Below are positions 14,848 to 40,407 of a stretch of DNA of 40,407 nt, in pieces (within the stretch, counting starts at the first letter, position 1; each line of letters opens with the position of its first letter). The notes below the pieces were generated by a model that did not search any database, had not been told where the DNA came from, and was given only the letters and a program-made list of their open reading frames with translations. Source of the DNA: Nitrospirota bacterium (GTDB taxonomy: Bacteria > Nitrospirota > Nitrospiria > JACQCE01); NCBI GenBank assembly GCA_040755775.1, contig JBFMAJ010000001.1:1-40407 (forward strand), written 5' to 3'. Position numbers and translations under genes: made by a program.

Positions 14848-14876
14848 TTGACAGCCCCCGGGTCCTATGGTACCGT
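14848..14876 (+). promoter_or_regulatory. Candidate promoter (TTGACA-N17-TACCGT)
   Basis: TTGACA at 14848-14853 and TACCGT at 14871-14876. If real, the ATG at 14867 lies upstream of the transcription start. That favours the ATG at 14918 for the TPR gene. Confidence 0.3.
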
Positions 14877-14917
14877 TTTTCGACGAGGCATTTTCATGTC
14901 GATGCGACAGGCGATCT

Positions 14918-17887: not shown

Positions 17888-17896
17888 GGAGGCGCC

Positions 17897-18724
17897 ATGG
17901 ATTATTTGGAGTACTACCAGCTCAAGGAGCAACCCTTCTCGATCGCCGTCGACAACCGCTTCTACTACAACAGCAGCCAGCACAGCGAGGCGCTGATCCG
18001 GCTGCGCTACGCGGCGGACACGCAGAAGGGGCTGGCGCTGCTGGTGGGCGACGTCGGGGCTGGCAAGACGACGCTGGCCCGCCGGCTGCTCGACGAGCTG
18101 GATGAGCGGTTCTTTCACGCGGCGCTGCTGGTCGTGATCCATGCGGGGGTCACGCCCGAATGGCTCGTGAGAAAGATCACGATGCAATTGGGGGTGGAAA
18201 AACCGTCCGATGACAAAACCGAGCTGCTGTCCCAGTTGTACCGGCGGCTGGTGGAGCTCCATGATCAGAACAAAAAAGCGGTCGTGCTGATCGACGAGGC
18301 GCAAATGCTCGGCACCAAGGGGCTCATGGAGGAGATTCGCGGCATTCTGAACATCGAGCTGGATGGCCAGAAGCTGCTGACGTTCGTGCTGTTCGGCCTG
18401 CAGGAGCTGGACAACAACCTGTCCTTGGACTTGCCGCTCAAGCAACGGGTGGCGATCCGCTATCAATTGACCTCGTTCACGCTGGCGACGACGGAGGATT
18501 ACGTCCGGTACCGGTTGCAAATCGCCGGGGCCACGCGGGACCTCTTCAGCAAATCGGCCCTCAAGGCCGTGCACGACTACTCGGGAGGGATCCCGCGGCT
18601 GATCAACACCATCTGCGACAACGCGCTGCTCGAGGGGTTTTTGCGCAAGAAGGAGCAGTTGGAGCCGGAGTTGATCCGCGAGGTGGCCGCCGATTTGAAG
18701 CTGCTCGAGCCCGCCGGCGCTTGA
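17897..18724 (+). CDS. ExeA/GspA/MshM-like AAA ATPase (short form, no C-terminal peptidoglycan-binding domain)
   Basis: MDYLEYYQLKEQPFSIAVDNRFYYNSSQHSEAL is the typical ExeA-family N-terminus. Walker A is GDVGAGKTTL and Walker B is VVLIDEAQ. It also has the GGIPRLINTICD motif. 275 aa. Confidence 0.85.
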   Translation: MDYLEYYQLKEQPFSIAVDNRFYYNSSQHSEALIRLRYAADTQKGLALLVGDVGAGKTTLARRLLDELDERFFHAALLVVIHAGVTPEWLVRKITMQLGVEKPSDDKTELLSQLYRRLVELHDQNKKAVVLIDEAQMLGTKGLMEEIRGILNIELDGQKLLTFVLFGLQELDNNLSLDLPLKQRVAIRYQLTSFTLATTEDYVRYRLQIAGATRDLFSKSALKAVHDYSGGIPRLINTICDNALLEGFLRKKEQLEPELIREVAADLKLLEPAGA

Positions 18725-28021: not shown

Positions 28022-28050
28022 TTGACAGAAAGGGCGATCACCCCTACCTT
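28022..28050 (+). promoter_or_regulatory. Candidate promoter (TTGACA-N17-TACCTT)
   Basis: TTGACA at 28022-28027 and TACCTT at 28045-28050, upstream of the GTG at 28094. Confidence 0.35.
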
Positions 28051-28093: not shown

Positions 28094-28909
28094 GTGTACA
28101 TCGAGTACTGGGGCTTTCAACGCCTTCCATTTGAAAATGTGCCGGATCCCCGGTTCTATTTTCCCTCCAGCCAGCATGAAGAAGGGTTGCACCGGATGCT
28201 CTATGCCGTCACACAGCGCAAAGGGGCGGCAATGCTGACCGGCGAAGTGGGCTGCGGAAAAACGCTGTTGTCGCGCGAATTCCTCAAGCAATTGAATGGC
28301 GGCCAAGAGTACAACGTTGCCTTGATCACCAATCCCTCGTTTCCGGTGCTCGAATTTTTACAGGAAATCCTGTACCAGTTCGGCGTCGGCTCCGTTCCGA
28401 AAAAGAAGATCGCCATCCTGCACCGGCTTAATGACCACCTGCTCGAGAACGAGCAGAAGGGGATTGCCAGCGTGATCGTAGTGGACGAGGCGCAGGCGGT
28501 CCGTGATCTACAGATCCTCGAGGAGCTGCGGCTGCTGTTGAATTTTCAGCGCAACGACCGTTTTCTCCTGACGCTGGTGCTGCTGGGCCAGCCGGAACTG
28601 CGGGAAAAGCTGCTGGAGATTCCCCAATTCGCCCAGCGCATCGGGATTCAGTACCACTTGACGCCGTTGGAATTGCCCGACGTGGAGCGCTACGTCAAAT
28701 GCCGCCTGAAGGCGGCCGGCGGCTCCGAGACGCTGTTTGACGCCGATGCGATCTATTTGATTCACGACGGCAGCAAGGGCATTCCGCGGGTCATCAATCA
28801 TCTGTGCGATCTCTGCCTGCTGGCGGGCGCCATGGCCAAACTGTCGGGCATTGACGGCACGCTGGTTCAAAAGGCGACCAAGAACAGCCAGTTCGCGGCC
28901 GTGTCATGA
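28094..28909 (+). CDS. ExeA/GspA/MshM-like AAA ATPase, second paralog (short form)
   Basis: GTG at 28094 preceded by GGAGAAGGGA. VYIEYWGFQRLPFENVPDPRFYFPSSQHEEGL aligns residue for residue with the N-terminus of the 17897 gene. Walker A is GEVGCGKTLL and Walker B is VIVVDEAQ. It also has KGIPRVINHLCD. Confidence 0.8.
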   Translation: MYIEYWGFQRLPFENVPDPRFYFPSSQHEEGLHRMLYAVTQRKGAAMLTGEVGCGKTLLSREFLKQLNGGQEYNVALITNPSFPVLEFLQEILYQFGVGSVPKKKIAILHRLNDHLLENEQKGIASVIVVDEAQAVRDLQILEELRLLLNFQRNDRFLLTLVLLGQPELREKLLEIPQFAQRIGIQYHLTPLELPDVERYVKCRLKAAGGSETLFDADAIYLIHDGSKGIPRVINHLCDLCLLAGAMAKLSGIDGTLVQKATKNSQFAAVS

Positions 28910-29997
28910 GCGATCAGAAGCCGATCCTTCGTTACAGCGAGCTGGCGCAAACGATGATGCCGGCCGGGGGCGGCGCGCCCGACGGCGGGAGCGGAAAGTC
29001 CGCCGACATCGCATTTCGCGAGATCGAGGGATTGAAGGCGGCCAAATCCGGGCCGGCCACTCCCCGCGCGCCGGTGATGGTGCCCGACAATCGGGCGGGC
29101 GAGCTCTTTCGCCAGGCGACCCGGGAGGCCCGCATCGTCTACGAGGGCGTGCGGCAGGGGCAGCCGCTGAGAATCGAGCCGCTTTTCGGCCTCGCCGAAT
29201 CGATTGTCGCCCATCCGTCGGAGGATCATCTGATCCGGCACATGTTCGACGATCAGCGGCGCGCGCCCACCGTGCATCGCAATGCCGCGACCTGCGCCAT
29301 CATCGCGGCGCGGATCGGCCGGGGATTGGGCTATCCGAAGGACGATCTGGTCCAATTGACCGTGGCCGGGCTGCTGCATGACATCGGCGTTGAAAAGCTT
29401 CCCACCAACCTGCTGGAAAAACCGGGCAAGCTGACGTCGGAGGAATTCGCCATGGTGCAGACTCACCCGGAGTGGGGCTACCGTCTCCTGCACCAGCACG
29501 CGCCGAAATATCCGATCGTCGCGCAGATCGTCCGGCAAGAGCACGAGCGGGAAGCGGGACAGGGCTACCCCGACAAGCTGACCGGCGAGGCGATTCTGGA
29601 GCCGGCCAAAATCATCGGCGTCACCGATATCTACGATGCGCTGATCACGCCGCGTCCGTATCGAAAGGCCTTTTGCCCGCACGAGGCGATTCAAGAGCTG
29701 CTTGACTGCCAGGAGCGTATGGGATATGCTCGCCACGTCGTGCGCGCCTTGATCCAGCAATTTTCCTTGTTTCCGCCGGGATGCTGGGTTGAGTTGAGTT
29801 CCCATGAAATCGCCCGGGTGATCCAAAGCAACAGCCGCTCGCCCTTGCGCCCCGTGGTGGAAGTGCTCTACGCGGCCGATCATCAGCCGTTGGTGCCGCC
29901 CCGCGTCATCGATCTGGACGAAAATCCTCTCATGCACATCACGGCCTCGCTCTGCACGGATGAGATTCCGGCGTCCAAGCCGGCTCATGGGGGGTAA
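28906..29997 (+). CDS. HD-GYP-type domain protein (variant motif) with an uncharacterised N-terminal region
   Basis: ATGA overlap with the upstream ATPase gene. LLHDIGVEKLP...LTSEEFAMVQTHPEWGY...EHEREAGQGYPDKLTGEAI...VTDIYDALITPRPYRKA follows the HD ... GYP layout. Confidence 0.8.
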   Translation: MSDQKPILRYSELAQTMMPAGGGAPDGGSGKSADIAFREIEGLKAAKSGPATPRAPVMVPDNRAGELFRQATREARIVYEGVRQGQPLRIEPLFGLAESIVAHPSEDHLIRHMFDDQRRAPTVHRNAATCAIIAARIGRGLGYPKDDLVQLTVAGLLHDIGVEKLPTNLLEKPGKLTSEEFAMVQTHPEWGYRLLHQHAPKYPIVAQIVRQEHEREAGQGYPDKLTGEAILEPAKIIGVTDIYDALITPRPYRKAFCPHEAIQELLDCQERMGYARHVVRALIQQFSLFPPGCWVELSSHEIARVIQSNSRSPLRPVVEVLYAADHQPLVPPRVIDLDENPLMHITASLCTDEIPASKPAHGG

Positions 29998-30006
29998 GAT
30001 CCGCCA

Positions 30007-31152
30007 CTACCGAAACGGCAATCGGCCGAGCAGGCGGAATGCTTGGCCGGAGAAGCGGCCCACTCTGGACAGGTAGCCGATGCCGAGGTTCCATGGCGAG
30101 GAAGAGCCGACCATTTCCTCCATGACCGATCGTTGTGGCCATACCAGTTGAGCAAGGAACCGAAGCCGTACGAGCGGGTCCTCGATCGCCAGGAGATAGA
30201 GGAGATCGCCCATTCCATCAATCCGCCGATTGCGCGTTAACAGCGTGAGCAGTCGTTGTTCCACACAATTGAGCCGGGGAGCGGCCGCCGGCGGCGCATC
30301 GAACGGCCACGACTGTCCAATGACGTTCTGCAAATAGGATGAGACAAAATGGAAAGGCTTTTCGAGGTTGAGTTGACCGGCTCGTTCACGCAGAAAGGTT
30401 GGCGCGTCTTCTTGCGCATGCACCTGAAGAAGCCGGCCGATATCCACAAACCAGATCAACCGGCCAAATGAATGTTTTTGCAAGTGCGCACAAAGCAGGA
30501 TGATCTGATCGACTGAGGAGGGAATCCACGCGCCTGGGAGGTTGCCTCGCCAGGGTATGGCCGACTGCCAGAGGAGCGTATCATCGACCCGAAGCGGATT
30601 CCTCGCCTGCGGCTCCACCCGGGAGAGATAGGCCAGTTCGGGATGAAGGTCGACGCAGATGTCCCGTTTTGCATAGGTCGGCGGATAGCGATGAAGGGGG
30701 AGATAACCAAGCCGGATCAGCACCCGTTGCGCCTGCGGCAAATGATGTCGTGGAATCAACAGGTCGATGTCGCTCAACGGCCGCGCGCCAGAAGAAGGAT
30801 AAATCCGCTCCGTGATCGCCATGCCTTGCAGGAGTAGAAAGCGGAGTCCTTCCTGATCGAACGCTTCGGCCATCTGCTCGACGGCTCGAGCCTTTCGTGC
30901 GTAATCGATCTGGTTGCGCAGATGAGTGTGGCGCAGTGACCGGCTCACGGACGGGGGCAGCTTCGCCTCCAGACCCGTCTGCAGGACCTGTTCATAGAAA
31001 AGACCGACTAACCCCTCTGACGATGCCCGTTCAAGCAGACCTGACCAATCGGTCATCGAGCAAAGCAGTTGTTGAAATTCTTCGCTTCCGCCGGCATTGC
31101 AGGCCAAGCGACTTGACATGAGGAGCAGGCGCTGGTTTACATGGGCGTCCAT
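30007..31152 (-). CDS. Uncharacterised nucleotidyltransferase family protein (NTP_transf_5-like)
   Basis: 381 aa. ...LRFLLLQGMAITERIYPSSGARPLSDIDLLIPRHHLPQAQRVLIRLGY... is the G-x-x...D-x-D nucleotidyltransferase fold pattern typical of the family found next to PqqD and HPr-kinase-like genes. Confidence 0.65.
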   Translation of the reverse strand: MDAHVNQRLLLMSSRLACNAGGSEEFQQLLCSMTDWSGLLERASSEGLVGLFYEQVLQTGLEAKLPPSVSRSLRHTHLRNQIDYARKARAVEQMAEAFDQEGLRFLLLQGMAITERIYPSSGARPLSDIDLLIPRHHLPQAQRVLIRLGYLPLHRYPPTYAKRDICVDLHPELAYLSRVEPQARNPLRVDDTLLWQSAIPWRGNLPGAWIPSSVDQIILLCAHLQKHSFGRLIWFVDIGRLLQVHAQEDAPTFLRERAGQLNLEKPFHFVSSYLQNVIGQSWPFDAPPAAAPRLNCVEQRLLTLLTRNRRIDGMGDLLYLLAIEDPLVRLRFLAQLVWPQRSVMEEMVGSSSPWNLGIGYLSRVGRFSGQAFRLLGRLPFR

Positions 31153-31164
31153 GTCGGCGCTTCC

Positions 31165-31193
31165 ATCTTAGTCGATCTTCACGTATCCTTCAA
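31165..31193 (-). promoter_or_regulatory. Candidate promoter on the minus strand (TTGAAG-N17-TAAGAT)
   Basis: The reverse complement of 31188-31193 is TTGAAG and of 31165-31170 is TAAGAT. The -10 box ends 12 nt before the ATG at 31152, giving a very short leader. Confidence 0.4.
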
Positions 31194-31232
31194 CGCATCC
31201 CGAGCACGTATAGACAGACAACGCCGCCGAGC

Positions 31233-31262
31233 TTGACAAATCGCCGCTGATGGGGTCATCTT
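31233..31262 (+). promoter_or_regulatory. Candidate promoter (TTGACA-N17/18-(T)CATCT(T)) ending 5-6 nt before the ATG at 31268
   Basis: TTGACA at 31233-31238 and the -10 box at about 31256-31262. It shares the extended motif CTTGACA-R-ATCGCCGC ... ATCTTAA with the promoter at 32050. Confidence 0.4.
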
Positions 31263-31267
31263 AACTT

Positions 31268-31714
31268 ATGCTGTGGGAGGCGGATCCGGATGCCGCCGCA
31301 TTCGACCCGCGTATGATGGAACGAGACGAAACAGTATGGCTTACCGTTGAGGGCCGCAGCATGAGCCCGGTCCTGCGTTCCGGCGACGCCGTGATGATTC
31401 GTTGCTGTACGGCCGACGCCGTAAAACCCGGTGACGTCATCACTGTCGCTGATCCCGCCGGTCTGTGTACTCATCGTTTGATCATGATAACCCACGAGGG
31501 AGGAAAACGCCTGCTTTGGACCAAGGGTGACGCGTGTGCGCACTGGGATGATCCCATCGATTCCGAGGCGTTACTGGGCAAGGGCGTCGCCATGTTGAGG
31601 GGCGGGCGGCATCTCTCGCTTGAGAAGGGGTGGCGCGCGCTGAATTTCGTTATGCTTGGTGTTTCCATGGTATTAGGAGGGCTGCTATGGGTGAAATGGA
31701 CGTTGCGCGTTTAG
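31268..31714 (+). CDS. S24/S26-family serine peptidase, SipW/archaeal-type signal-peptidase-like, with a C-terminal TM helix
   Basis: VEGRSMSPVLRSGDAVMI...KPGDVITVADPAGLCTHRLI...LWTKGDACAHWDDPI parallels the GSMEP...GD...THRI...TKGDNN layout of SipW-type peptidases. The C-terminus ALNFVMLGVSMVLGGLLWVKW is hydrophobic. Confidence 0.65.
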   Translation: MLWEADPDAAAFDPRMMERDETVWLTVEGRSMSPVLRSGDAVMIRCCTADAVKPGDVITVADPAGLCTHRLIMITHEGGKRLLWTKGDACAHWDDPIDSEALLGKGVAMLRGGRHLSLEKGWRALNFVMLGVSMVLGGLLWVKWTLRV

Positions 31715-31992
31715 ACCGGATCCCGGTCAAAGCGCCGCAGACGGCCTATCAAGTGCTCGATGAGCAAGCGGTTGTCCTTGACATCACCGCAAAAATTTTG
31801 CGGGGATTCAATCCCGTTGCCAGCCGCATTTGGCATCTGGTGGATGGCAGACGAACGATCAAAGAGATTGCCGTGACAATCGCCGAAGAATTTGCCGGCG
31901 ATGAAGCCGAAATTGTCCGCGATGTCGACGCGTTCCTTCATGAACTGACCGACAAGCAGCTGGTGGTCTTTTCCCCCGCTCCGATTACGTAG
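31687..31992 (+). CDS. PqqD-family protein (stand-alone RiPP recognition element-like)
   Basis: ATG at 31687 preceded by AGGAGG. YQVLDEQAVVLDITAKILRGFNPVASRIWHLVDGRRTIKEIAVTIAEEFAGDEAEIVRDVDAFLHELTDKQLV follows the PqqD pattern (beta-strands, then a winged helix, then a ...L.e.gLv ending). 101 aa. Confidence 0.75.
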   Translation: MGEMDVARLDRIPVKAPQTAYQVLDEQAVVLDITAKILRGFNPVASRIWHLVDGRRTIKEIAVTIAEEFAGDEAEIVRDVDAFLHELTDKQLVVFSPAPIT

Positions 31993-32049
31993 TCTTTTCA
32001 GTGGTTTTTGCGCCGGTCTTCCATCAGCCGATTCACCGTGCATTGCCAC

Positions 32050-32077
32050 TTGACAGATCGCCGCATCGCGCTATCTT
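32050..32077 (+). promoter_or_regulatory. Candidate promoter (TTGACA-N16-TATCTT)
   Basis: TTGACA at 32050-32055 and TATCTT at 32072-32077, about 120 nt upstream of the GTG at 32197. It shares the extended motif with the promoter at 31233. Confidence 0.4.
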
Positions 32078-32196
32078 AAGGAGTAACGCGGAAGAAGACG
32101 ACGGGTACACAGCCGCCGATAAGAGCAAACCCTGAGACATCGGGGGACGCAAAGCCACTCACCTCGTCGAAAAGACGGGGCAGGAGGGTTGCCGAA

Positions 32197-35100
32197 GTGG
32201 ACGGGATCCGAAACCGAGTCCGTTTCCTTTTCCAGGGAATGGCCTTTTTTTCTGTGACGCGCGCGCTCTCCTGTGGTGCGCTCTTCCTGCTTGTTCAGTT
32301 CATCGGCCCGTTCGCGCAAGGTCCTGAGGCTCTGGCGGCGCAGGCGGGTGACGGGCATGTGATCTACGGCAATAGAAATGCGTCGACGACGCTCTACAAC
32401 CGCTCGTTCAACGGAACGACGTTCGGGTTGGAGGGGGCGTTGCTTTTGGCGGATTTTGTTCGCTGGACCGATCTGGAGGCCTCACCAACTGACGCTGATC
32501 GATTGCTGCGGGGCGTGATCGAGAAAGGGACGAAAGCGGTCAAAACGTCAATTTTCGACTATTCAACCGGCACGTGGACTGAAATCACGACTGTCACGTC
32601 CAGCACGGGCAATGATTCTCGCCGCCTCTTCGACATCGAATTTGAGGAAGGCACGGGAGATGCGCTGATTGTGTACGCTAGCAGCACCGCGGGAGCCTTG
32701 CGGTACCGAACCCTGAGCTCGGCCTGCGCTCCGATTGCCACTTGCGATTGGAGCGCGCAACAGACGTTGAATTTTGCCGGAGGAACGCCTCGTACCGTGA
32801 GAGCCGCGAGAGATCCGGATTCAGACGATGTTTTGGTGGCCTGGGAGGACAGCAATTTCGATGTCTTCTCGGCCCTGTGGAACGGTTCCTCCTTCGGCGG
32901 CGTCACGATCCATGAGACGAACTCAATCAACGCCGCACTTGACACCAGCGGCGCGCCGCTGGGGCCAAAGGACTCTCAGGTATTCGATCTGGCCTGGGAG
33001 GGCGGTGGCAGCACTTCTGAAGCGATGGTCGCGTGGATGAACAGCGTCGGCGTGGTTCGGTACAATACGTGGACGGGCGGGGCTTGGGGTCTTTCGAATG
33101 ATCTCCCCGGATTGAGTTTCGCAGTGGGAGACAAAGCGGGTGGTCTCGTCGTCGCCAGCACCCGTTGGTCGGCTGCGCATAGCCGGATCGCTATTTTTGC
33201 AGGCAACGGAAATGAGAAACGCATCAAGGTCAATATCTGGTCCGGCACTGGCTGGGGGGCCGCGGAACTCCTGGGATCGGTGGGATCCGATATGCGAACG
33301 GACAAGGAGGGGTTGCCGCTGGAAGCTGTGTGGCAGGCGACGACCGGAAACTTATTCGTCCCGTTCATTGTAAGGCAGAATGACATCGGGGTGCGTCTTC
33401 GAATCTACGATGTAAGTTCGGATACGTGGGGCGTGGATCAGGGGCCGCTCACCGGAACCGACATTTTCAAGGGATACGTGCGGGCCGATGCCGATCGAAA
33501 TTCTCAAGCGGTCGGGATTGTGGCGGGAGACAAGAACGTCGACATCGGGACGTTCGGTCTGATTTGCGCGCATCCGTGCAGCGTGGGTACAGCAGCGGAG
33601 TGGACGACGACTGAAATCAATACGGCGGCGGCTGAAGACAAAATTGTCGCGGGAGATATCGTGTTTTATGAGGCGGTTTCACCCGCGCCAGTGACTGATT
33701 TGACGATCACTTCGTACAATGCGGAAAATGTGATTTTCTGGGCCAATCCCGCCACGCCCATCACGCATATACTGGTTCTGGCGAAGACTTCAGACTGCAC
33801 TTTTGGCATCGATCCGGGAGGCGCCGAGGGTATCGGCGCCACGGTGGGAAACGCGGTCGTCATCTATAACAACAACCCGGCCACAGATCTGTCTTCAACG
33901 CCTGTGACCGTCGGCGGCCCCACTGCCGTCAGCTACACGGCGGCGACCCAGCGCTTGGTGCACAGCGGTTTGACCGATGGCACCGTCTATTGCTACAAAG
34001 TTTATGCCCGGAACGGCAGCCAGCTTGACGACAACAGCGGTGCCGGTCGTCCGGCCGTCTCGGCCACGGGCACGGATGGGGTCGCGCCCAGCGCAGTTTG
34101 GACCTTCAATCTGGTCTCATCCGTGGGGGCGTCATTGGTTCAACCGAGCCTGGATCCTGGTGTTGCCATCTATACGTCCTATGGGAGCGGGACCATCGCA
34201 TCGATCGGTGCGACAGACGGGCTGCTGTCATGGCGCGCCACGCCGGCGGCGGGGGCGATACAAGATCAGTCGGCGATCGTGTGGATGTCGGGCTCTAGCA
34301 CCTGTGGCATCGGTGGGGCCACCACCTGTCTCTTCGCCGCCTCCCAGGATGGCTACGTCTATGCCCGAAATGCGGTCAGCGGCGCGGGGACGTGGAGCTA
34401 CCGGCATGCCGCAGGCGACGTCCTGCAAGGTGCGCTGGCCGTCCAGATTAAAGACTACAGCAATGCAGGCTACATGCCGACGGTTGACCGGCTGTTCGCC
34501 GCCACGCGCAACACCACCACCATCGCGAACAAGGTCTACGCGCTAGACCCCACGACGGCCCCGCCGACGATCGCCTGGCTTTTCACCGGCGGAGGCGTCA
34601 ATCCGGCCATGGACATGGTGAGTTCGCCCCCGGCGCTTGACTACGCCAACAACCGCCTCTACGTCACCAGCCATTCCAACGGCGGGACCCAGCGGAGCCT
34701 GTGGGTCTTCAGCACTGTCGATGGCGCCCTGCTCAGCACGGGAGCGTCGTATGGCGGCACGAGCCTGGGTGATGTGGCTGTTCCGCCCGCCCTCAGTGTT
34801 GATGGAAGCGTGGTCTATGCGGGGACGACGACCGGGACGATCGCCGCTTACAATACTATCGACGGTTCATTGCGATGGAGCTTTGCTGCGGGCAGCGCGG
34901 TAGCGTCGGGTCTCTGGGTGGAATTTCGCGCCGGTCTGGCGGGTAATCTCTTTTTCAGCACGGCCAACGGCAGAGTGTGGCGCATTCGCGATGATGGCGC
35001 CTCCGCTACCGATATATGGGGTGCCGGCGCTCCGACCGTTACGGCGGCTTCCTTCCCCGTGGTGATTCCATCGGCCGGCAAGGTTTACGTGGGTGGCTGC

Positions 35101-35325
35101 TCCGGCGCCAATTGTGCCGCAGGCAGTCAGGGGCGGCTCTACCAGCTCGACGTGGCGACGGGCGCCAAGGAACAGTGCAGAAACCTCGGCGCCAACGTCA
35201 CGGTCGGCGATCCCGCGTTCGATACGGTGTTTGAGCGGCTTCTCGTGGGTGCCAGCGATGGAAAAGTTCACACCTACGCAGCGCCGGCCGGCATTCTGGG
35301 AGGGGATCCGTCATGCACGCCGTAA
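32197..35325 (+). CDS. Large secreted or membrane-anchored protein: N-terminal hydrophobic segment, W-x-G-x-x-W/F-G repeat (propeller-like) region, FN3-like segment, C-terminal PQQ/BamB-like beta-propeller
   Basis: GTG at 32197 preceded by CAGGAGGG. MAFFSVTRALSCGALFLLVQFIGPFA is hydrophobic. Repeats occur every 55-62 aa (YSTGTWTE, ALWNGSSFGG, YNTWTGGAWG, NIWSGTGWG, VSSDTWG). The C-terminal part has repeats such as DGYVYARNAVSGAGTWSY, NKVYALDP, TIAAYNTIDGSLRWSF, GRLYQLDVATGA and DGKVHTY, typical of PQQ-like propellers. Confidence 0.7.
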   Translation: MDGIRNRVRFLFQGMAFFSVTRALSCGALFLLVQFIGPFAQGPEALAAQAGDGHVIYGNRNASTTLYNRSFNGTTFGLEGALLLADFVRWTDLEASPTDADRLLRGVIEKGTKAVKTSIFDYSTGTWTEITTVTSSTGNDSRRLFDIEFEEGTGDALIVYASSTAGALRYRTLSSACAPIATCDWSAQQTLNFAGGTPRTVRAARDPDSDDVLVAWEDSNFDVFSALWNGSSFGGVTIHETNSINAALDTSGAPLGPKDSQVFDLAWEGGGSTSEAMVAWMNSVGVVRYNTWTGGAWGLSNDLPGLSFAVGDKAGGLVVASTRWSAAHSRIAIFAGNGNEKRIKVNIWSGTGWGAAELLGSVGSDMRTDKEGLPLEAVWQATTGNLFVPFIVRQNDIGVRLRIYDVSSDTWGVDQGPLTGTDIFKGYVRADADRNSQAVGIVAGDKNVDIGTFGLICAHPCSVGTAAEWTTTEINTAAAEDKIVAGDIVFYEAVSPAPVTDLTITSYNAENVIFWANPATPITHILVLAKTSDCTFGIDPGGAEGIGATVGNAVVIYNNNPATDLSSTPVTVGGPTAVSYTAATQRLVHSGLTDGTVYCYKVYARNGSQLDDNSGAGRPAVSATGTDGVAPSAVWTFNLVSSVGASLVQPSLDPGVAIYTSYGSGTIASIGATDGLLSWRATPAAGAIQDQSAIVWMSGSSTCGIGGATTCLFAASQDGYVYARNAVSGAGTWSYRHAAGDVLQGALAVQIKDYSNAGYMPTVDRLFAATRNTTTIANKVYALDPTTAPPTIAWLFTGGGVNPAMDMVSSPPALDYANNRLYVTSHSNGGTQRSLWVFSTVDGALLSTGASYGGTSLGDVAVPPALSVDGSVVYAGTTTGTIAAYNTIDGSLRWSFAAGSAVASGLWVEFRAGLAGNLFFSTANGRVWRIRDDGASATDIWGAGAPTVTAASFPVVIPSAGKVYVGGCSGANCAAGSQGRLYQLDVATGAKEQCRNLGANVTVGDPAFDTVFERLLVGASDGKVHTYAAPAGILGGDPSCTP

Positions 35326-35339
35326 GCAAAGAGGGGCGC

Positions 35340-35903
35340 ATGGCATATTTCATGCTCATTGGTCTGTTGGTGTCGGGATTGGCGATGCTGCTGCCCGGCA
35401 CGGCATGGGCGGGCGGAGGCGGCCAAGAGTTGCGTCATTCAGGCGCCAGTGCCTTTCTGATTGTGGCGGGAACGAGCGTGTATGATCAGGCCGGCCGAAG
35501 TCGTAGATCGGGGGGGATGCGGAAGACCCTGACGGTGAACACATCCTTTTCTATCTCGACCGTTCGTGACGTGTATGTGTATACCTATTGGGAGAATCTA
35601 TTTGGCGAGCATGATCTGATCATCTTGGTGTATAGTCCAGACGGTCAATTGTATCAAAAACGGGTCGTGCCCATCTCCATCGGCCAATTATCGTCGTCGA
35701 CCCGGCAGGTGCCAGGGGTGGAGAATGTCGTGGATGTTCAACGCACCACCCCCCTGGGCCGGTACGAGGTGTCAACGGTGCAACTCCCCATCGCGGGCAC
35801 CTGGATTACGGAACATCGGCTCTTGGGGACGTGGCGGGTCGACGTGTTGCTGGACAAGGCATCGGCACCCGTCACCAGCGGGACCTTTATCATTACGGAA
35901 TGA
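35340..35903 (+). CDS. Hypothetical secreted protein (signal peptide; no recognisable family)
   Basis: ATG at 35340 preceded by AGAGGGG. MAYFMLIGLLVSGLAMLLPGTAWAGGGG is a signal-peptide-like N-terminus with an AWA-G cleavage-type site. 187 aa. Confidence 0.55.
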   Translation: MAYFMLIGLLVSGLAMLLPGTAWAGGGGQELRHSGASAFLIVAGTSVYDQAGRSRRSGGMRKTLTVNTSFSISTVRDVYVYTYWENLFGEHDLIILVYSPDGQLYQKRVVPISIGQLSSSTRQVPGVENVVDVQRTTPLGRYEVSTVQLPIAGTWITEHRLLGTWRVDVLLDKASAPVTSGTFIITE

Positions 35904-35933
35904 TCCTCCCCCCGGTTCTGGGGCGCCTCCTGG

Positions 35934-35962
35934 TTGCTGGAACAGTCCGGGTGGGGTATAGT
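35934..35962 (+). promoter_or_regulatory. Candidate promoter (TTGCTG-N17-TATAGT) for the small ORF / kinase / rSAM unit
   Basis: TTGCTG at 35934-35939 and TATAGT at 35957-35962. The predicted leader of about 29 nt carries GGAGGA at 35985-35990. Confidence 0.45.
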
Positions 35963-35997
35963 GGTGGCTGATTGTCACACGATTGGAGGAACTGAAG

Positions 35998-36153
35998 ATG
36001 GCTGAGGAACGGGAAGCCCCAAAAAAGCCGCAGCCGTACGTCAGGCCAAAGATCGAGTGGGAGGAGCCGTTCGAGCCGGTGACGTCGGCGATCAGTTGCG
36101 CGAAACGACCGGGGCAAGGTGTCCCCAGCTGCATGGCCGCGCCTCGAGTGTGA
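35998..36153 (+). CDS. Untracked 51-aa ORF, candidate precursor peptide: MAEEREAPKKPQPYVRPKIEWEEPFEPVTSAISCAKRPGQGVPSCMAAPRV
   Basis: Translated by hand. It is too short for the supplied ORF track, whose shortest entry is 60 aa. GGAGGA lies 7 nt upstream of the ATG, one of the best SD sequences I noticed in the window. Third codon positions are mostly G/C, like the real genes here. The N-terminal half is charged and the C-terminal part holds two Cys residues. It sits immediately upstream of the HPr-kinase-like and rSAM/SPASM genes. Confidence 0.45.
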   Translation: MAEEREAPKKPQPYVRPKIEWEEPFEPVTSAISCAKRPGQGVPSCMAAPRV

Positions 36154-36160
36154 GGGGTTG

Positions 36161-36973
36161 GTGGGCGCGTATTCTGTCGTGCTTGAAATGGCGGGCGTCG
36201 CCGGCGCGGTGACGACGCGCGATCGGGCCGTGGCGGAGCTTCTGCGTCATCGGTATCGCGCCTTCTTAACCGAGAAACCGCCGCGTTTCACCGTCGCGGC
36301 CGTTGTTGACCTTCGTGCGGGTGGGCAAGGCGATCCCTTGACGATTACAACCGGGCCCGTTCACGCACAATGGCGGAGCGGAAGGGTGCGTCTGTCCGGC
36401 GGCGGCTTTTTCGCCGCTTTTGATTGGACGTCTCGACGAGGGACCGTTGCCAGCCCGCTCAACCTGACGCCGATCGACCTGCTGCTCAAAGTGATTTACA
36501 TGCAGCTGCTGCTGCGCGAGCGGGCTTGCTTTATCCATGGCTGCGCCGTGGAGCGCGAGGGGCGCGGCTATCTTTTTTTCGGCCCGAGCGGAAGTGGCAA
36601 ATCCACGCTGGCGCGGACGGCCGGCGGCGCGGTCCTGGCCGACGAGCTGGTGATCGTGAAACGGGGCGTGGAGCGGCGGCCGAGCTATTCGCTTTACGGC
36701 ACGCCGTTTTGGGGCGGCCTCAACCGACGGGCTCCGTTGACAGGGCTCTTCGCCCTGCGTTTTCATCCGGACGCCTCTTCTTTGGCCCCCCTGTCGCGGG
36801 TGCAAGCCTTGCGACGGCTGCTTCCCTGCCTTGGCGGTTTCGGGGCCCCCCGATCTGACGATGCCCGTCTGTTCGAATGGGCGTCGATATTGGTCCGGGA
36901 TCAGCGGTGTCATGAAATTTGCCGCTCGGTCCGTTCCGAACCCTGGGACTGGTTTTATGCTGTTGCCGCCTGA
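36161..36973 (+). CDS. HPr-kinase-related protein (HprK C-terminal-domain-like P-loop)
   Basis: ORF 36119..36973 contains CFIHGCAVEREGRGYLFFGPSGSGKSTLA...LADELVIV, the HprK-type H-G...G-x-S-G-x-G-K-S layout. The start is uncertain: GTG 36119, TTG 36158, GTG 36161 or ATG 36188. I chose the first GTG after the small-ORF stop. Confidence 0.7.
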   Translation: MGAYSVVLEMAGVAGAVTTRDRAVAELLRHRYRAFLTEKPPRFTVAAVVDLRAGGQGDPLTITTGPVHAQWRSGRVRLSGGGFFAAFDWTSRRGTVASPLNLTPIDLLLKVIYMQLLLRERACFIHGCAVEREGRGYLFFGPSGSGKSTLARTAGGAVLADELVIVKRGVERRPSYSLYGTPFWGGLNRRAPLTGLFALRFHPDASSLAPLSRVQALRRLLPCLGGFGAPRSDDARLFEWASILVRDQRCHEICRSVRSEPWDWFYAVAA

Positions 36974-38123
36974 CGCGCACGGCCTCGTCGATCCCGGTTC
37001 GCCGTCCCATTATGCCCGATGGACCGAAGAGGCGGCCCGCCGCTATCTTCCGGTGAATGTCCTGATGGAGCTAACGCATCGATGCCATTTGGATTGCGTC
37101 CATTGCTATCTCGAAGACAACCACCGCCACACCGACAAGCGACGGGAGCTGACCGACGCCGAGGCCTGCGGCGTGATCGATCAGTTGGTCGAGGCCGGGG
37201 GATTGTTCCTGACCTTGAGCGGCGGGGAATTGCTTCTGCGCAAGGATGCCGTGGCGATCGCCCGTTATGCGCGCGGCAAAGGATTGGCCCTGCGGCTCTA
37301 CACCAGCGGAACATTGATCACCGACCGGCTGATCGAGGAGATGATCGCCCTCCATCCGCTGTCGGTGGAGTTCTCGCTCTATTCGGCCGACAATCCGGCC
37401 CTGCACGATGCGATCACCAGGGCACCGGGTTCGCACCAGAAGACGCTGCGGGCTGTTCGCGTTTTCGCGGGCCGCGGGGTCCCCGTGGTGATCAAGACGC
37501 CCCTGATGCGTGAGATTTTTTCCGAATATCCCAAGATCGTGCGATTAGCCCAGGAACTGGGAATTGCCTACCTGCTGGATCCGACAATTAACCCGAAGAA
37601 CGACGGGGAAAACTCTCCCTGTCGATTCAGGCTGTCGCCGGAGCAGCTGGCCGCGCTCTATGCCAACCCAAGCATCCCGGCCCCGCCGGAGATGCAATGG
37701 ATCGGCAAGGCCCGCCGCCATCCGGAGGATGAGGTCTGCAATCTCGGGAAAACGGGCTGCGCGATTTCTCCGTTCGGCGACGTCTATCCGACGGTGGGTT
37801 TCCCCTGGTCGGCGGGCAACGTGCGGGAGAGGCCCTTCGGCGTCATCTGGCGGGAGGCGCCGTTGTTTCGAAAATTGCGTGCCTTGACGGTGAAGGATCT
37901 TGCCACCTGCTCCGGTTGCGAGAAGTTCGCCTATTGCGGCCGCTGTTGCGTGTGGGCCTTGATGGATGACGGCGATTTGCTGGGTCCGTCGCTCTGGGCC
38001 TGCGAACTGGCCGCCGCCAAAGAGCGGGCCGCCGGCCTTCCTTCCGAACCGACCCCGTACCAGCGGGCCCGACAGCACAACCCACGGGAGCCGCGCGGGG
38101 TCATGATCGACACACTGTTCTGA
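36957..38123 (+). CDS. Radical SAM enzyme with a C-terminal SPASM domain
   Basis: ORF 36831..38123. LMELTHRCHLDCVHCY is the CxxxCxxC cluster and LTLSGGELLL is the GGE motif. The C-terminal CNLGKTGCAISPFGDVYP...CSGCEKFAYCGRCC fits the SPASM Cys pattern. I prefer the ATG at 36957 (17-nt overlap with the upstream gene). The ATG at 36912 is also possible. Confidence 0.85.
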   Translation: MLLPPDAHGLVDPGSPSHYARWTEEAARRYLPVNVLMELTHRCHLDCVHCYLEDNHRHTDKRRELTDAEACGVIDQLVEAGGLFLTLSGGELLLRKDAVAIARYARGKGLALRLYTSGTLITDRLIEEMIALHPLSVEFSLYSADNPALHDAITRAPGSHQKTLRAVRVFAGRGVPVVIKTPLMREIFSEYPKIVRLAQELGIAYLLDPTINPKNDGENSPCRFRLSPEQLAALYANPSIPAPPEMQWIGKARRHPEDEVCNLGKTGCAISPFGDVYPTVGFPWSAGNVRERPFGVIWREAPLFRKLRALTVKDLATCSGCEKFAYCGRCCVWALMDDGDLLGPSLWACELAAAKERAAGLPSEPTPYQRARQHNPREPRGVMIDTLF

Positions 38124-38236: not shown

Positions 38237-38989
38237 ATGAATCACGTACGGAAATCGTCGAGAACCCATGTGAAAGCGATACTGAAACAAATGAGCAGTA
38301 CGCTGTGGATGGGGGTCATCGTCGGGCTGCTGGCGGGCTGCGCGATCAACACGCCGACGCCAACGGTGACCGAGCCGCAGGAGCTGGCCAAAGCCAGGCA
38401 GATCATCATCAGCCCCGGCGACGTGCTGGAAGTGATCATCCGGCGGGGCTCGGCGGAGGACACCTTCACCTCGACCGTCCGGGACAACGGCATCGCGTCC
38501 ATCTCGGTGGTCGATTTGGACGTCAAGGGATTGACGCTGCTGGAGGCGGAGCACAAGCTGGCCGAGGCGCTGACGCCGTTCGTCAAGGAGCCGCGCGTTC
38601 AGGTGCTGTTCAAGCAAAAAGTCATCTCCGATCGATTTTTTGTCTTTGGCGAGGTCAACAAACCGGGTGTGTTTCCGCTCGAACCCGGCACCACCATCGC
38701 GGATGCGTTGGGAAAGGCCGACGGCTACAACAAAACAGCCTATCTGCCGAGCGTGCGGATCCTTCGCGGGGGACTGGAGCACCCGGAAATTTTGCCCGTC
38801 GACGTAGACCAGCTCCTCTACAAGGGGAATCAGGGCCAGAACCTGCTGCTCAAAAATCAGGATATTGTCTTCGTCCCGCGGACGAGGATCGGGGATTGGA
38901 ACAGGTTTATCGAAGAGATCAGGCCGACGCTTGAAGTCATCACCTTGCCGCTGCAGTCGGTGATCCTCGGCCGGGCCGTCAAGGATTAG
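38237..38989 (+). CDS. Polysaccharide export protein (Wza / EpsE-like; Poly_export + SLBB), lipoprotein
   Basis: LWMGVIVGLLAGC is a lipobox. ISPGDVLEVII...VFGEVNKPGVFPLEPGTTIADALGKADGY...NQDIVFVP are typical motifs of the polysaccharide export family. An alternative start is the ATG at 38291. Confidence 0.85.
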   Translation: MNHVRKSSRTHVKAILKQMSSTLWMGVIVGLLAGCAINTPTPTVTEPQELAKARQIIISPGDVLEVIIRRGSAEDTFTSTVRDNGIASISVVDLDVKGLTLLEAEHKLAEALTPFVKEPRVQVLFKQKVISDRFFVFGEVNKPGVFPLEPGTTIADALGKADGYNKTAYLPSVRILRGGLEHPEILPVDVDQLLYKGNQGQNLLLKNQDIVFVPRTRIGDWNRFIEEIRPTLEVITLPLQSVILGRAVKD

Positions 38990-38997
38990 GGGCAGAC

Positions 38998-40407
38998 GTG
39001 GCTCAATACGAGTTGAATCTTCGGGACTACTGGCAGATCGTCCGCAAGCAGCGGCGCACCATCGCGCTGACGACCGTCCTGGTCGCGCTGGCCTCCTTCG
39101 GCCTGTCGCAACTGCTCAAGCCGGCGCCGCAGTACGAGGCGACGGCCAGCGTCAAATACGACCGCTCCAGCAATTTTACCGGCCTCTTCATGGAAGTCAT
39201 GACCTATTCATACGCCGACGACATTACCAGCCAGACGGAAGTGATCAAAAGCTATCCGGTCATTGAAGCGGCCGCCCGTTTAGCCGGATTGGTTGCTCCG
39301 GAAACGCCCACCGAGCAGATTCGCCGGGAGCCCGAGCTCCTGGCCACGGTGCTGAACCTCCAGCGGCGGGTCAAGGCCGAGCGCGAGGGCAATACGAACA
39401 TCATCCGGGTGACGGTCACGGCGGGCCGGCCGGAGGCGGCGGAGCAGCTGGCCAACAGCGTCGTCGAAGCCTACCAGCAGGAAAACATCTATCAGCGCAA
39501 CCGTCAGGTGGACGAGGCCCAGAAATTCATCGAGCAACAGATGTCGATGGTGGAAACGCAGCTGCGGGCCGCCGAAGCCAAGGTGGAGGAATTCAAGCGC
39601 ACCAACGACGTGGTGGACCTGAGCGAAGAGGTCAAGGTGCAATTGACCGAAATGGCTCGGGTGGAATCGGAACATGCCAAAACACTGCGGACGCTGGAGG
39701 AGCTCACCGATCAGATCGACCAGCTTCGCCGCCAGGGCTCGTTGAGTTTGAGCAGCCAGGCCGGCTCGCCCGCCCCGGCCGATCCCGCGCGGATTTTCAC
39801 CGAGGAGGCGGCCGCGCAGATCTTCATGCTCAACAGCCGGCTGATGGATCTGCTGCAGGAGCGCGACACGCTGCTGATCAGCTACCATCCGGGCCATCCA
39901 CAGGTGAAGGACCTCGATCAGAAAATTCAGGTCATTCGCGAAGAGATGCTCCGGGAATTGAGCGCCAAGCGGGGGACGTTCCAGCGGCGGGAAGCGCAGT
40001 TGGGCGAACGGCTGGCGGACTTCAAAAAACAATATTTCAGCGTGCCGGAAAAAGCGCTGCAACTGGCCCGGATCGAGCGCGACGTCAAGATCAACAATGA
40101 CATTTATCTGCTGCTGAAGACGAAATATCAGGAAGCGCTGATCAAGGGCGCCGAAAAAATCATCGAGGTGACGCAACTTCAGCCGGCGTTCGCCAGCGCG
40201 GTTCCGATCAACGTGCCCAACGTGCTCCTGAACGTGCTCGTCGGCGCGCTCATCGGCTGCCTGCTGGGGCTTCTGATCGGATTCATCCAGGAGTCGTTCG
40301 ATACCTCCCTGGGCACCATCGAGGACGTGGAGTCGTTCCTGGGGCTGCCGGTGCTGGGCGTGCTGCCGCCGGCCGGCGCCGACGTGATGAAGTACGCGTC
40401 GTCGCCG
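38998..40407 (+). CDS. Polysaccharide chain-length determinant / co-polymerase (Wzz/GumC family), 3'-truncated by the window edge
   Basis: Translated by hand from the GTG at 38998: VAQYELNLRDYWQIVRKQRRTIALTTVLVALASFGLS...YEATASVKY...SQTEVIKSYPVIEAAA...NIIRVTVTA...AEQLANSVVEAYQQ.... This is followed by a long coiled-coil region and a second TM helix (VLLNVLVGALIGCLLGLLIGFI). The frame stays open to the last base, and the ORF is absent from the track because it has no stop. Confidence 0.8.
   Translation, partial: MAQYELNLRDYWQIVRKQRRTIALTTVLVALASFGLSQLLKPAPQYEATASVKYDRSSNFTGLFMEVMTYSYADDITSQTEVIKSYPVIEAAARLAGLVAPETPTEQIRREPELLATVLNLQRRVKAEREGNTNIIRVTVTAGRPEAAEQLANSVVEAYQQENIYQRNRQVDEAQKFIEQQMSMVETQLRAAEAKVEEFKRTNDVVDLSEEVKVQLTEMARVESEHAKTLRTLEELTDQIDQLRRQGSLSLSSQAGSPAPADPARIFTEEAAAQIFMLNSRLMDLLQERDTLLISYHPGHPQVKDLDQKIQVIREEMLRELSAKRGTFQRREAQLGERLADFKKQYFSVPEKALQLARIERDVKINNDIYLLLKTKYQEALIKGAEKIIEVTQLQPAFASAVPINVPNVLLNVLVGALIGCLLGLLIGFIQESFDTSLGTIEDVESFLGLPVLGVLPPAGADVMKYASSP

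Follow-up and report, generated by a model that had tools for sequence, protein, structure and literature searches.

Why should a gene for an ATPase of the ExeA family run directly into a gene for an HD-GYP protein with an altered signature motif, ahead of genes for polysaccharide export? The question is raised by a 40,407-nucleotide stretch of DNA (hereafter the window) from a Nitrospirota metagenome-assembled genome (MAG) that is 87% complete and 2.09 Mb in size. The original prediction, made from the letters of the window, held that the second of two ExeA-like ATPases encoded there (ATPase2) is translationally coupled to a possibly degenerate HD-GYP protein, and that the two may form a regulatory or assembly checkpoint responsive to cyclic di-GMP (c-di-GMP). 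We compared both proteins and their surroundings with related loci, all of the genomes compared being MAGs. These comparisons indicate that the pair is a conserved module and not a local accident, and it very probably acts as a functional unit. Its parts in the window are as follows.

28022..28050, forward strand: putative sigma-70-type promoter of the two-gene operon (TTGACA at 28022-28027, 17-nucleotide spacer, TACCTT at 28045-28050)
28094..28909, forward strand: ATPase2, a 271-amino-acid cytoplasmic AAA+ ATPase of the ExeA/GspA/MshM (AAA_22) family, assigned to an HD-GYP-linked clade
28906..28909, forward strand: ATGA stop/start overlap of 4 bases
28906..29997, forward strand: stand-alone HD-GYP variant of 363 amino acids with a Pfam HD_5 match
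28924..28950, forward strand: conserved N-terminal peptide ILRYSELAQ, residues 7-15 of the HD-GYP protein, followed by a disordered linker
29254..29763, forward strand: HD-GYP catalytic-type domain, residues ~117-286 (core 122-286 in the AlphaFold2 (AF2) model), with an apparently remodelled metal site
29539..29571, forward strand: variant signature EHEREAGQGYP (canonical HHExxDGxGYP), residues 212-222
29773..29955, forward strand: C-terminal five-stranded beta-barrel, residues ~290-350, of no Pfam family

A coupled gene pair found in several phyla

The proposed overlap of the ATPase2 stop codon with the HD-GYP start codon is present and can be read directly as ...GTGTC-ATGA-GC, at the junction of an open reading frame of 271 codons with a GTG start and one of 363 codons with an ATG start, both on the forward strand. 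A mis-called start, which would have made the overlap an artefact, is not the explanation: position 28906 is the earliest start codon in frame, and the ILRYSELAQ peptide that follows it is conserved in orthologues at the protein level. The ATPase2 start at 28094 agrees with the N termini of its orthologues and lies 44 nucleotides past the TTGACA-17-TACCTT element, both hexamer regions of which are invariant in an alignment with the upstream regions of two orthologous loci (L001 and L003). It was by this alignment that the element was found; its -10 hexamer is weak, and a consensus promoter scan made no call at 28022-28050. Elsewhere, the junction between ATPase and HD-GYP genes ranges from a 38-nucleotide overlap to a 34-nucleotide gap in nearly all of 38 loci, the exceptions being loci in which the ATPase gene is split or carries a stop. 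We regard the two genes as translationally coupled on these features. The pair stands by itself as a unit in the window: bioA lies upstream in divergent orientation, and an NTP_transf_5 gene, 9 nucleotides past the HD-GYP gene, is convergent with the pair.

The pairing, which had been flagged as an unfamiliar arrangement, is syntenic in many genomes from several phyla. We assembled 80 species-representative loci of the HD-GYP subfamily, found with a profile pattern that excluded the positions scored below, and 73 of them have enough upstream sequence to judge. An ATPase gene stands immediately upstream of the HD-GYP gene on the same strand in 33 of these 73 (45%), and the encoded proteins share 43-70% identity with ATPase2 but only 32-42% with ATPase1, its paralogue in the window. 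The groups that carry the pair comprise Nitrospirota, Planctomycetota (the anammox lineages Brocadiaceae and Scalindua), Nitrospinota, Thermodesulfobacteriota, NC10 and Fidelibacterota, that is, at least six phyla. In the reverse direction, 107 of 151 genomes scanned in the phylum gave ExeA-family matches; all nine matches with at least 47% identity to ATPase2 have an HD-GYP gene downstream, as against none of the 20 fetched matches with 45% identity or less. Members of the ATPase2 clade seem always to be accompanied by an HD-GYP protein of this subfamily, and the subfamily also occurs without the ATPase. Its members in Nitrospirota MAGs that are orthologous to the window protein share 50-69% identity with it.

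A dedicated clade of short ExeA-like ATPases

ATPase2 matches the Pfam family AAA_22 at 6.5e-24 and, as first described, aligns end to end with ATPase1 (98 of 265 residues identical, 37%; E = 3e-54); the four peptide pairs that had been quoted from the two proteins are all there. Walker A (GEVGCGKT, residues 50-57, nucleotides 28241-28264) and the DE of Walker B (residues 131-132, nucleotides 28484-28489) are readily located, and 44 relatives from the same clade have kept both Walker motifs (DEAQ in Walker B) together with QRI and GxPRxIN. An AF2 model of high confidence (predicted local distance difference test score (pLDDT) 91.8) shows only an AAA+ alpha/beta core with its lid. Its best fold matches are ORC2/Cdc6, MuB and TnsC, and the match by sequence in the PDB is MuB. 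These folds are ATP-dependent oligomerizing switches, and the model suggests that ATPase2 is an AAA+ protein of the switch type.

The same matches could be taken to mean that the pair acts on DNA, with ATPase2 oligomerizing there in the manner of ORC, MuB or TnsC and controlling transcription of the exopolysaccharide (EPS) operon while the HD-GYP protein senses a nucleotide. All of the best folds are of DNA-bound, initiator-clade AAA+ proteins (ORC2, Cdc6, MuB and TnsC), to which the PDB sequence match with MuB can be added, and the pair stands at operon heads. However, Pfam and the AF2 model give no winged-helix or helix-turn-helix domain in ATPase2, the pair is placed at the end of an operon and not at its head in a Fidelibacterota locus (L123), and the members of the family that have been studied, ExeA/GspA, act in the assembly of envelope machines and are not known to act on DNA. 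We consider this explanation improbable.

In a maximum-likelihood tree, all 44 HD-GYP-linked ATPases fall on one side of a branch with support 100/99, and a clade linked to tetratricopeptide repeat (TPR) proteins that includes ATPase1, the GspA clade of type II secretion systems (T2SS) and a fourth group fall on the other, a clean split that is partly a product of sampling, most of the linked ATPases having been found through their HD-GYP gene. Nine linked ATPases found through the ATPase search fall in the same HD-GYP-linked clade. By sequence, the short ExeA-like ATPases among which ATPase2 falls form a dedicated sister clade outside the PEP-CTERM and T2SS types; residues W6, N15, E91, N119, N154, F157 and Q178 are specific to this clade.

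Both of these better-known assignments were rejected. The best NCBIfam model for ATPase2 is TIGR03015 (PEP-CTERM ATPase), which describes an ATPase that likewise belongs to EPS loci and which matches over the full length at 1.4e-64; the score of 218.2 bits is well below the curated equivalog cut-off of 324.5, and the exosortase (EpsH/XrtA; PF09721) gave no match in the 87%-complete genome from which the window comes, so ATPase2 is not classed as an XrtA/PEP-CTERM ATPase. Nor is it the ExeA/GspA protein of a T2SS, as the true GspA of the genome, of 662 amino acids, belongs to a separate clade and is encoded on contig C64, where GspC, GspD, GspE and GspF follow. With ExeA/GspA, and with MshM of the mannose-sensitive haemagglutinin (MSHA) pilus, ATPase2 shares the AAA_22 P-loop family and the GxxGxGKT and DEAQ motifs, and, in the role proposed for it, that of an accessory ATPase of an envelope-spanning export machine. 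Unlike them, ATPase2 has 271 amino acids, lacks the membrane/peptidoglycan-binding extension and groups in its own clade; its partner is an HD-GYP protein in place of GspB or MshN, and its neighbours are Wza and Wzc in place of T2SS or pilus genes. A part in anti-phage defence was also rejected: PADLOC returned only weak generic P-loop matches for ATPase2 and none for the HD-GYP protein.

Two further observations concern this family. The 662-amino-acid GspA is a third ExeA-family paralogue of classical type and heads a T2SS operon (C64:641-8049; L090) that continues with GspC, the GspD secretin, a GspE with an MshEN domain (c-di-GMP-binding type) and GspF. Some ATPase2 orthologues carry an in-frame stop or are split between two frames (L065:5925-6731, L089:8631-9425, L015 and L060) and are followed by an intact HD-GYP gene, which may reflect decay of the ATPase in some lineages or an assembly error.

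An HD-GYP protein with an apparently remodelled active site

The HD-GYP protein matches Pfam HD_5 at 1.9e-30 (106.3 bits, cut-off 27.2) over residues 120-270. Its AF2 model (pLDDT 81) has PmGH, PA4781 and DvhD as best structural matches, and searches of PDB sequences place PmGH (4mcw) first and 5z7c second. PmGH, a GAF-HD-GYP protein of Persephonella marina (4mcw/4mdz) and an active c-di-GMP phosphodiesterase, is the best match by sequence and fold together, and alignment with 4mcw gives the following correspondences.

PmGH D183: A120 in the window protein
PmGH E185: T122
PmGH H189: N126
PmGH H221/D222: H158/D159
PmGH K225: V162
PmGH H250: H187
PmGH H276: E212
PmGH H277: H213
PmGH D305: D241
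PmGH D308: D244

The catalytic residues are, then, not all conserved. Substitution of the first His and the Asp of the signature, which had been suspected by comparison with the canonical motif, is borne out (H276 to E212 and D281 to A217), and there are two changes that had been missed: N126 stands where the HD fold has its first His, and V162 where HDxGK has its Lys. In PmGH, the substitutions H189A, H276A, K225A and D183A each abolish activity, and alanine at E185 markedly lowers it (PMC4159591). Set beside a competent phosphodiesterase, the window protein retains the HD dyad, the GYP motif and the nucleotide-contact residues and lacks the first His, the double His and the HDxGK Lys with its Asp partner. 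A nearby residue, H124, was considered as a replacement for the first-His ligand and rejected, as it is not conserved in orthologues.

These features recur across the 80 loci. Position 212 is Glu in 36, Ala in 43 and Lys in 1, and His in none; position 162 is never Lys (Met, Leu, Ile or Thr in the subfamily); position 120 is mostly Gly, the Asp equivalent to PmGH D183 being absent from all 80; and position 126 is Asn in 58 and His in 20. By contrast, H158, H187 and D241 are found in every sequence, as are Y221 and R250, and D159 is present in 75; position 213 is His in 68 and Gln in 12. The residues that contact c-di-GMP are kept in the window protein as K172-P-G174, G220-Y221-P222 and R250-P-Y252-R253, with K172 present in 75 of the 80 sequences, G174 in 69, I230 in 73 and Arg or Lys at 253 in 76. 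The description of the domain as possibly degenerate thus holds for the acid/base pair and two His ligands, which are lost, but not for the five ligands and the nucleotide pocket that remain. Because this combination of loss and retention runs through the subfamily, the active site appears to have been remodelled under selection and not to have decayed. The seven other HD-GYP domains in the genome score as canonical; all keep the first His, and 6 of the 7 read HDxGK.

Among these canonical-scoring paralogues, three deviate at the double His (C304:1152-1646 reads EHER, C215:2637-3134 HQER and C67:8228-8719 HEER), and the motif may vary more often than its consensus would imply.

We judge that catalysis is, on balance, weak or absent. 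The main rival explanation, which we consider unlikely, is that the protein is a working phosphodiesterase with a carboxylate-/amide-richer metal site, perhaps preferring Mn2+ or Mg2+ over Fe2+. It would form a local sink for c-di-GMP that, for example, resets riboswitch-controlled genes or EPS export, and the ATPase would modulate or localize the enzyme. The invariance of H158, H187 and D241 and the near-constancy of D159 and H213 agree with this, as does the retention of the full set of GYP, KxG and RxYR substrate contacts; Glu at 212 would be able to ligate a metal, and a paralogue that is otherwise canonical (C304) reads EHER. HD-GYP domains also accept many metals (bioRxiv 2021.11.05.467447). 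Three features of the 80 sequences speak against it: Ala at position 212 in 43 of them is equivalent to the inactive H276A variant of PmGH, the HDxGK Lys and the D183 equivalent, both essential in PmGH, are gone from all of them, and the first His is missing from 58.

Whichever way catalysis falls out, the ligand is probably c-di-GMP; we propose that the domain would still bind it because the KxG, GYP Tyr and R-x-Y-R contacts are conserved. RxY[K/R] is a determinant of specificity for c-di-GMP, and Gln or Asn at its last position has been linked to a shift towards cyclic GMP-AMP (cGAMP) (bioRxiv 2021.11.05.467447). Some HD-GYP proteins are specific for cGAMP, among them the second-best sequence match (PDB 5z7c), and the remodelled site, with Gln at 213 in 12 of the 80 sequences and Gln at 252 in 10, could be read as adapted to 3′3′-cGAMP, pGpG or another dinucleotide and hence to a different signalling circuit. 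That reading is very improbable: the specifying motif is kept as R-P-Y-R in the window protein, Gln or Asn occurs at its last position in only 1 of the 80, and a c-di-GMP-I riboswitch lies in the same locus.

Outside the catalytic-type domain, the N-terminal part had been described as about 150 unassigned residues; it is indeed unassigned, but shorter, at about 116. The AF2 model gives a disordered stretch (residues 1-54, pLDDT <50) with one short helix over the conserved peptide, then three helices (residues 62-116). At the other end it reveals a feature that had been missed, a beta-barrel with strands at residues 294-349 (pLDDT ~90) in which P290, G292, N309, R315 and P316 are invariant or nearly so. 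Neither isolated piece, residues 1-119 or 284-363, has a Pfam match at E <= 10. The N-terminal peptide has the family form M-x-R-[LM]-[STN]-D-[LIM]-[IV]-[KR], in which R9 and D12 are nearly invariant, and looks like a docking peptide for some partner. That the partner is the ATPase is unsupported, the peptide being equally frequent in members with and without one (14 of 19 ATPase-linked and 12 of 16 unlinked short forms); it is absent from long forms. The long forms, found in the genus Nitrospira (L022-L087, for example L087:9992-12070), have ~700 amino acids, an N-terminal HD-GYP part with the motif AHER and a C-terminal extension of ~400 amino acids without a Pfam match. Both short and long types occur on one Nitrospiraceae contig (L027 and L076).

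The comparison with characterized proteins can be drawn more closely. The window protein has in common with PmGH the HD dyad, the equivalents of H250, H277, D305 and D308, the GYP Tyr, the KPG motif and the RxxK-type ligand contacts, and differs at the positions of E185, D183, H189, K225 and H276; it also has no GAF domain, carries the N-terminal peptide, the helical extension and the C-terminal barrel, and is paired with a gene for an AAA+ ATPase. In DvhD from Desulfovibrio vulgaris (9rbz/9rc0), the HD-GYP domain is a c-di-GMP receptor that does not hydrolyse its ligand (PMC13090378). It too is a top structural match, at 30% identity, and likewise has an HD-GYP fold with an altered double His; there the fold serves as a c-di-GMP receptor that controls a biofilm output, the role that we propose for the window protein. 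In DvhD the HD dyad has become SQ and the double His MN, and no metal is bound, whereas the window protein keeps the HD dyad and three further ligands, H187, H213 and D241, so its loss is partial. DvhD is moreover a membrane receptor of dCache-transmembrane-PAS architecture that acts on a periplasmic protease, and the window protein is soluble and paired with an ATPase. A second group of HD-GYP proteins, RpfG, HnoD and ECA3548, signals mainly through protein-protein contacts (bioRxiv 2021.11.05.467447). Their domain is an interaction or sensor module for EPS or enzyme secretion, which resembles the proposed role; they differ in being fused to REC or PilZ domains and in having other degenerate motifs, and none is paired with an ExeA-type ATPase.

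Placement before polysaccharide export genes

What the pair might act on is suggested by the genes that follow it. Downstream of the pair the window contains the features listed here.

30007-38123: block resembling those for ribosomally synthesized and post-translationally modified peptides (RiPPs), with NTP_transf_5, an S24 peptidase, PqqD, a propeller protein of 1042 amino acids and a radical S-adenosylmethionine (SAM)/SPASM protein
32114..32196, forward strand: c-di-GMP-I riboswitch (Rfam RF01051), directly before the gene for the 1042-amino-acid propeller
38237-38989, forward strand: Wza-like outer-membrane polysaccharide export protein (Pfam Poly_export/SLBB)
38998-40407, forward strand, running off the window: Wzc-like co-polymerase, N-terminal part (Pfam Wzz/GNVR)

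The pair does stand immediately upstream of a RiPP-like and EPS block, as had been stated, but comparison with other loci indicates that the RiPP-like part is only inserted between the pair and its usual Wza-Wzc neighbours. The closest relatives (L001 and L003/L004) share the window's layout including the insert, and one close relative has the pair, PqqD, radical SAM protein, a small open reading frame, ScmC, NTP_transf_5, Wza and Wzc on a single strand. In two metagenomic contigs (L008 and L009), whose HD-GYP proteins are ~35% identical to the window's, the order is ATPase2, HD-GYP, Wza, Wzc, Wzy. NC10 has ATPase2, a tandem HD-[HD-GYP] protein, Wza and Wzc; a Thermodesulfobacteriota MAG (L125) has PilZ, an initiating glycosyltransferase, the ATPase, HD-GYP, DegT, radical SAM, Wza, Wzc and Wzy; and in a Fidelibacterota MAG (L123) the pair closes a glycosyltransferase/DegT/WbqC operon. 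Thirteen further species have a short HD-GYP protein without an ATPase directly before Wza-Wzc. Most often the pair neighbours genes of polysaccharide export, and short forms are encoded either in first place in Wza/Wzc-type loci or within them. The Wza and Wzc genes come soon after the HD-GYP gene, at distances of up to ~1.5 kb, in L005/L006, L008 and L009, as they do in 13 of the 80 species loci; because the export genes were sought by tblastn with the window's own Wza and Wzc, which misses divergent ones, the association with EPS genes is probably undercounted. As the pair is found with Wza/Wzc in loci that lack a RiPP-like cassette, we rejected the cassette as its primary partner. Judged by gene order, the Wza/Wzc machinery is the likely target, and that the output of the pair is polysaccharide export we rate as an even call.

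A simpler account of the same gene order would be that ATPase2 serves the Wza multimer of the outer membrane as an assembly factor, much as ExeA serves the secretin, and that the HD-GYP gene is merely co-transcribed, with no direct signalling between the two proteins. The ExeA/GspA family is known for secretin assembly, and the GspA of this genome is encoded in a T2SS operon; the pair often adjoins Wza, and some lineages keep the HD-GYP protein without the ATPase. Against this, ATPase2 consists of an AAA+ core and lid only and has no membrane or peptidoglycan-binding part. In addition, the HD-GYP gene is found immediately downstream of every member of the ATPase2 clade examined, a link stronger than that to Wza, and the coupling distance is tightly conserved. 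We therefore hold co-transcription without signalling to be a poor candidate.

The riboswitch is a further sign that c-di-GMP acts at this locus. It scores 61.4 bits against RF01051 (gathering score 35), lies ~2 kb downstream of the pair and is found at the same place in a related MAG (L001:7607-7691), before the gene for a large secreted propeller; it is absent from seven other related loci checked.

RiPP-like cassettes of differing kinds recur beside ATPase2, HD-GYP, Wza and Wzc genes in Nitrospirota, NC10 and Thermodesulfobacteriota (the window, L004, L008, L079 and L125). One type has PqqD and radical SAM/SPASM proteins with a small open reading frame, and the other, of lasso type, combines PqqD with an Asn-synthase and a transglutaminase; in the loci from Nitrospirota and NC10 an NTP_transf_5 gene is found with the cassette (the window, L001, L004, L008 and L079). 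Their recurrence suggests a supermodule for peptide plus polysaccharide.

A proposed c-di-GMP switch

We propose that ATPase2 and the HD-GYP variant form a dedicated two-protein signalling unit with its own promoter, in which coupled translation would supply the HD-GYP protein in fixed proportion to its partner. The HD-GYP domain would still bind c-di-GMP, whereas its catalytic centre has apparently been rebuilt, the acid/base pair being lost (A120 and V162) and His ligands replaced by E212 and N126; from this rebuilding it would follow that the nucleotide is hydrolysed slowly or not at all, which would make the protein a sensor or 'trigger' protein. Occupancy of the nucleotide site would be relayed, presumably within a physical complex, to ATPase2 as a switch-type AAA+ protein, and the ATP-dependent assembly state of ATPase2 might in turn license the assembly or activity of the Wza/Wzc export machinery encoded downstream. 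As a complete chain, in which a c-di-GMP sensor that hydrolyses its ligand weakly or not at all is coupled to an AAA+ switch gating polysaccharide export, this is our working proposal, and we put its chances at slightly below even. The notion with which the analysis began, that a regulatory or assembly checkpoint responsive to c-di-GMP serves the EPS export genes, is consistent with all of the findings and is strengthened by the recurrent placement of the pair before Wza-Wzc and by the riboswitch in the locus.

Several observations weigh against this proposal. The conservation of five metal ligands, complete for H158, H187 and D241 and near-complete for D159 (75 of 80) and H213 (68 of 80), suggests that the metal centre is functional and that catalysis may occur. 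Both Glu and Asn are able to ligate metals, and the change to EHER may by itself be tolerated, because the canonical-looking paralogue C304 has it too. The HD-GYP protein works without the ATPase in many lineages, as 40 of the 73 assessable subfamily members lack one. Finally, the ~700-amino-acid long forms of Nitrospira that do have an ATPase are encoded near LpxD, LptFG and a TPR gene and not beside Wza/Wzc, and one Scalindua locus is set among housekeeping genes.

HD-GYP domains, receptors with a degenerate HD-GYP domain and ATPases of the ExeA family have all been described before. In the literature we found no description of the subfamily signature, of the dedicated ATPase clade or of their pairing at polysaccharide loci, and Haft 2006 does not mention the ATPase. 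That the pair forms a receptor system, hitherto unrecognized, through which c-di-GMP acts post-translationally on polysaccharide export of the Wzx/Wzy type (Wza/Wzc) is a tentative suggestion that we would not yet call probable.

Control of polysaccharide secretion by c-di-GMP is understood mechanistically for synthase-dependent systems (cellulose, alginate and Pel), in which the receptors BcsA-PilZ, Alg44, PelD and BcsE use PilZ, degenerate GGDEF or GIL domains; to our knowledge, what is known of its control of Wza/Wzc-type export concerns mainly transcription. Our proposal follows the logic of the synthase-dependent systems, a c-di-GMP binder encoded in an EPS locus that licenses export, but here the locus is of the Wza/Wzc (Wzx/Wzy) type, and the sensor is derived from an HD-GYP domain and joined to an AAA+ ATPase. 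If the proposal is right, this locus-encoded unit of sensor and ATPase would be a testable candidate for direct c-di-GMP control of Wza/Wzc export. The pair is carried by nitrite oxidizers, anammox bacteria, NC10, Nitrospinota and sulfate reducers, for which aggregation matters in nature and in wastewater treatment, and the formation of biofilms and granules by nitrifiers and anammox bacteria is of practical importance. For annotation, the comparisons define a large HD-GYP subfamily, with Glu or Ala for the first His of HHE, no HDxGK Lys, the N-terminal peptide and the C-terminal beta-barrel, and mark off a dedicated clade of short ExeA-like ATPases that annotation at present lumps with the PEP-CTERM and T2SS types. 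The second protein is currently labelled 'HD-GYP domain-containing protein (c-di-GMP phosphodiesterase class II)' and ATPase2, by its best model, PEP-CTERM-type; both labels appear at best imprecise, and activity in this subfamily should not be assumed from an annotation as 'c-di-GMP phosphodiesterase'.

Other genes of the window and a second EPS neighbourhood

The part of the window upstream of the pair contains the following, in order.

Reverse strand: LptF/G, at the start of the gene order listed
14867-17887: TPR protein of 1006 amino acids, followed by ATPase1
17897..18724, forward strand: ATPase1, paralogue of ATPase2 in a different clade, after the TPR protein
After ATPase1: a tRNA and a Liv-type ABC transporter
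Between the Liv-type transporter and bioA: a histidine phosphatase, then a MinD/ParA-like ATPase and a DnaJ/HTH_25 protein
Reverse strand: bioA, upstream of ATPase2 and divergent from the pair

The TPR protein and ATPase1 (14867-18724 in the window; L003:753-4560; L087:18761-20869) resemble an MshN/MshM arrangement. The N terminus of the TPR protein matches the SgmX model at 6.6e-57, well under the cut-off of that model. Across Nitrospirota the TPR/ATPase1 pair stays beside divergent LptF/LptG, a few kilobases from the ATPase2/HD-GYP pair.

The genome also holds a second neighbourhood of c-di-GMP and EPS-export genes (C11:4739-8376; L091), in which the gene for a GAF-HD-GYP protein with canonical HDIGK and HHE motifs lies upstream of a second Wza-like gene at a distance of ~2 kb, the two being separated by a gene for a histidine-kinase-type ATPase protein.

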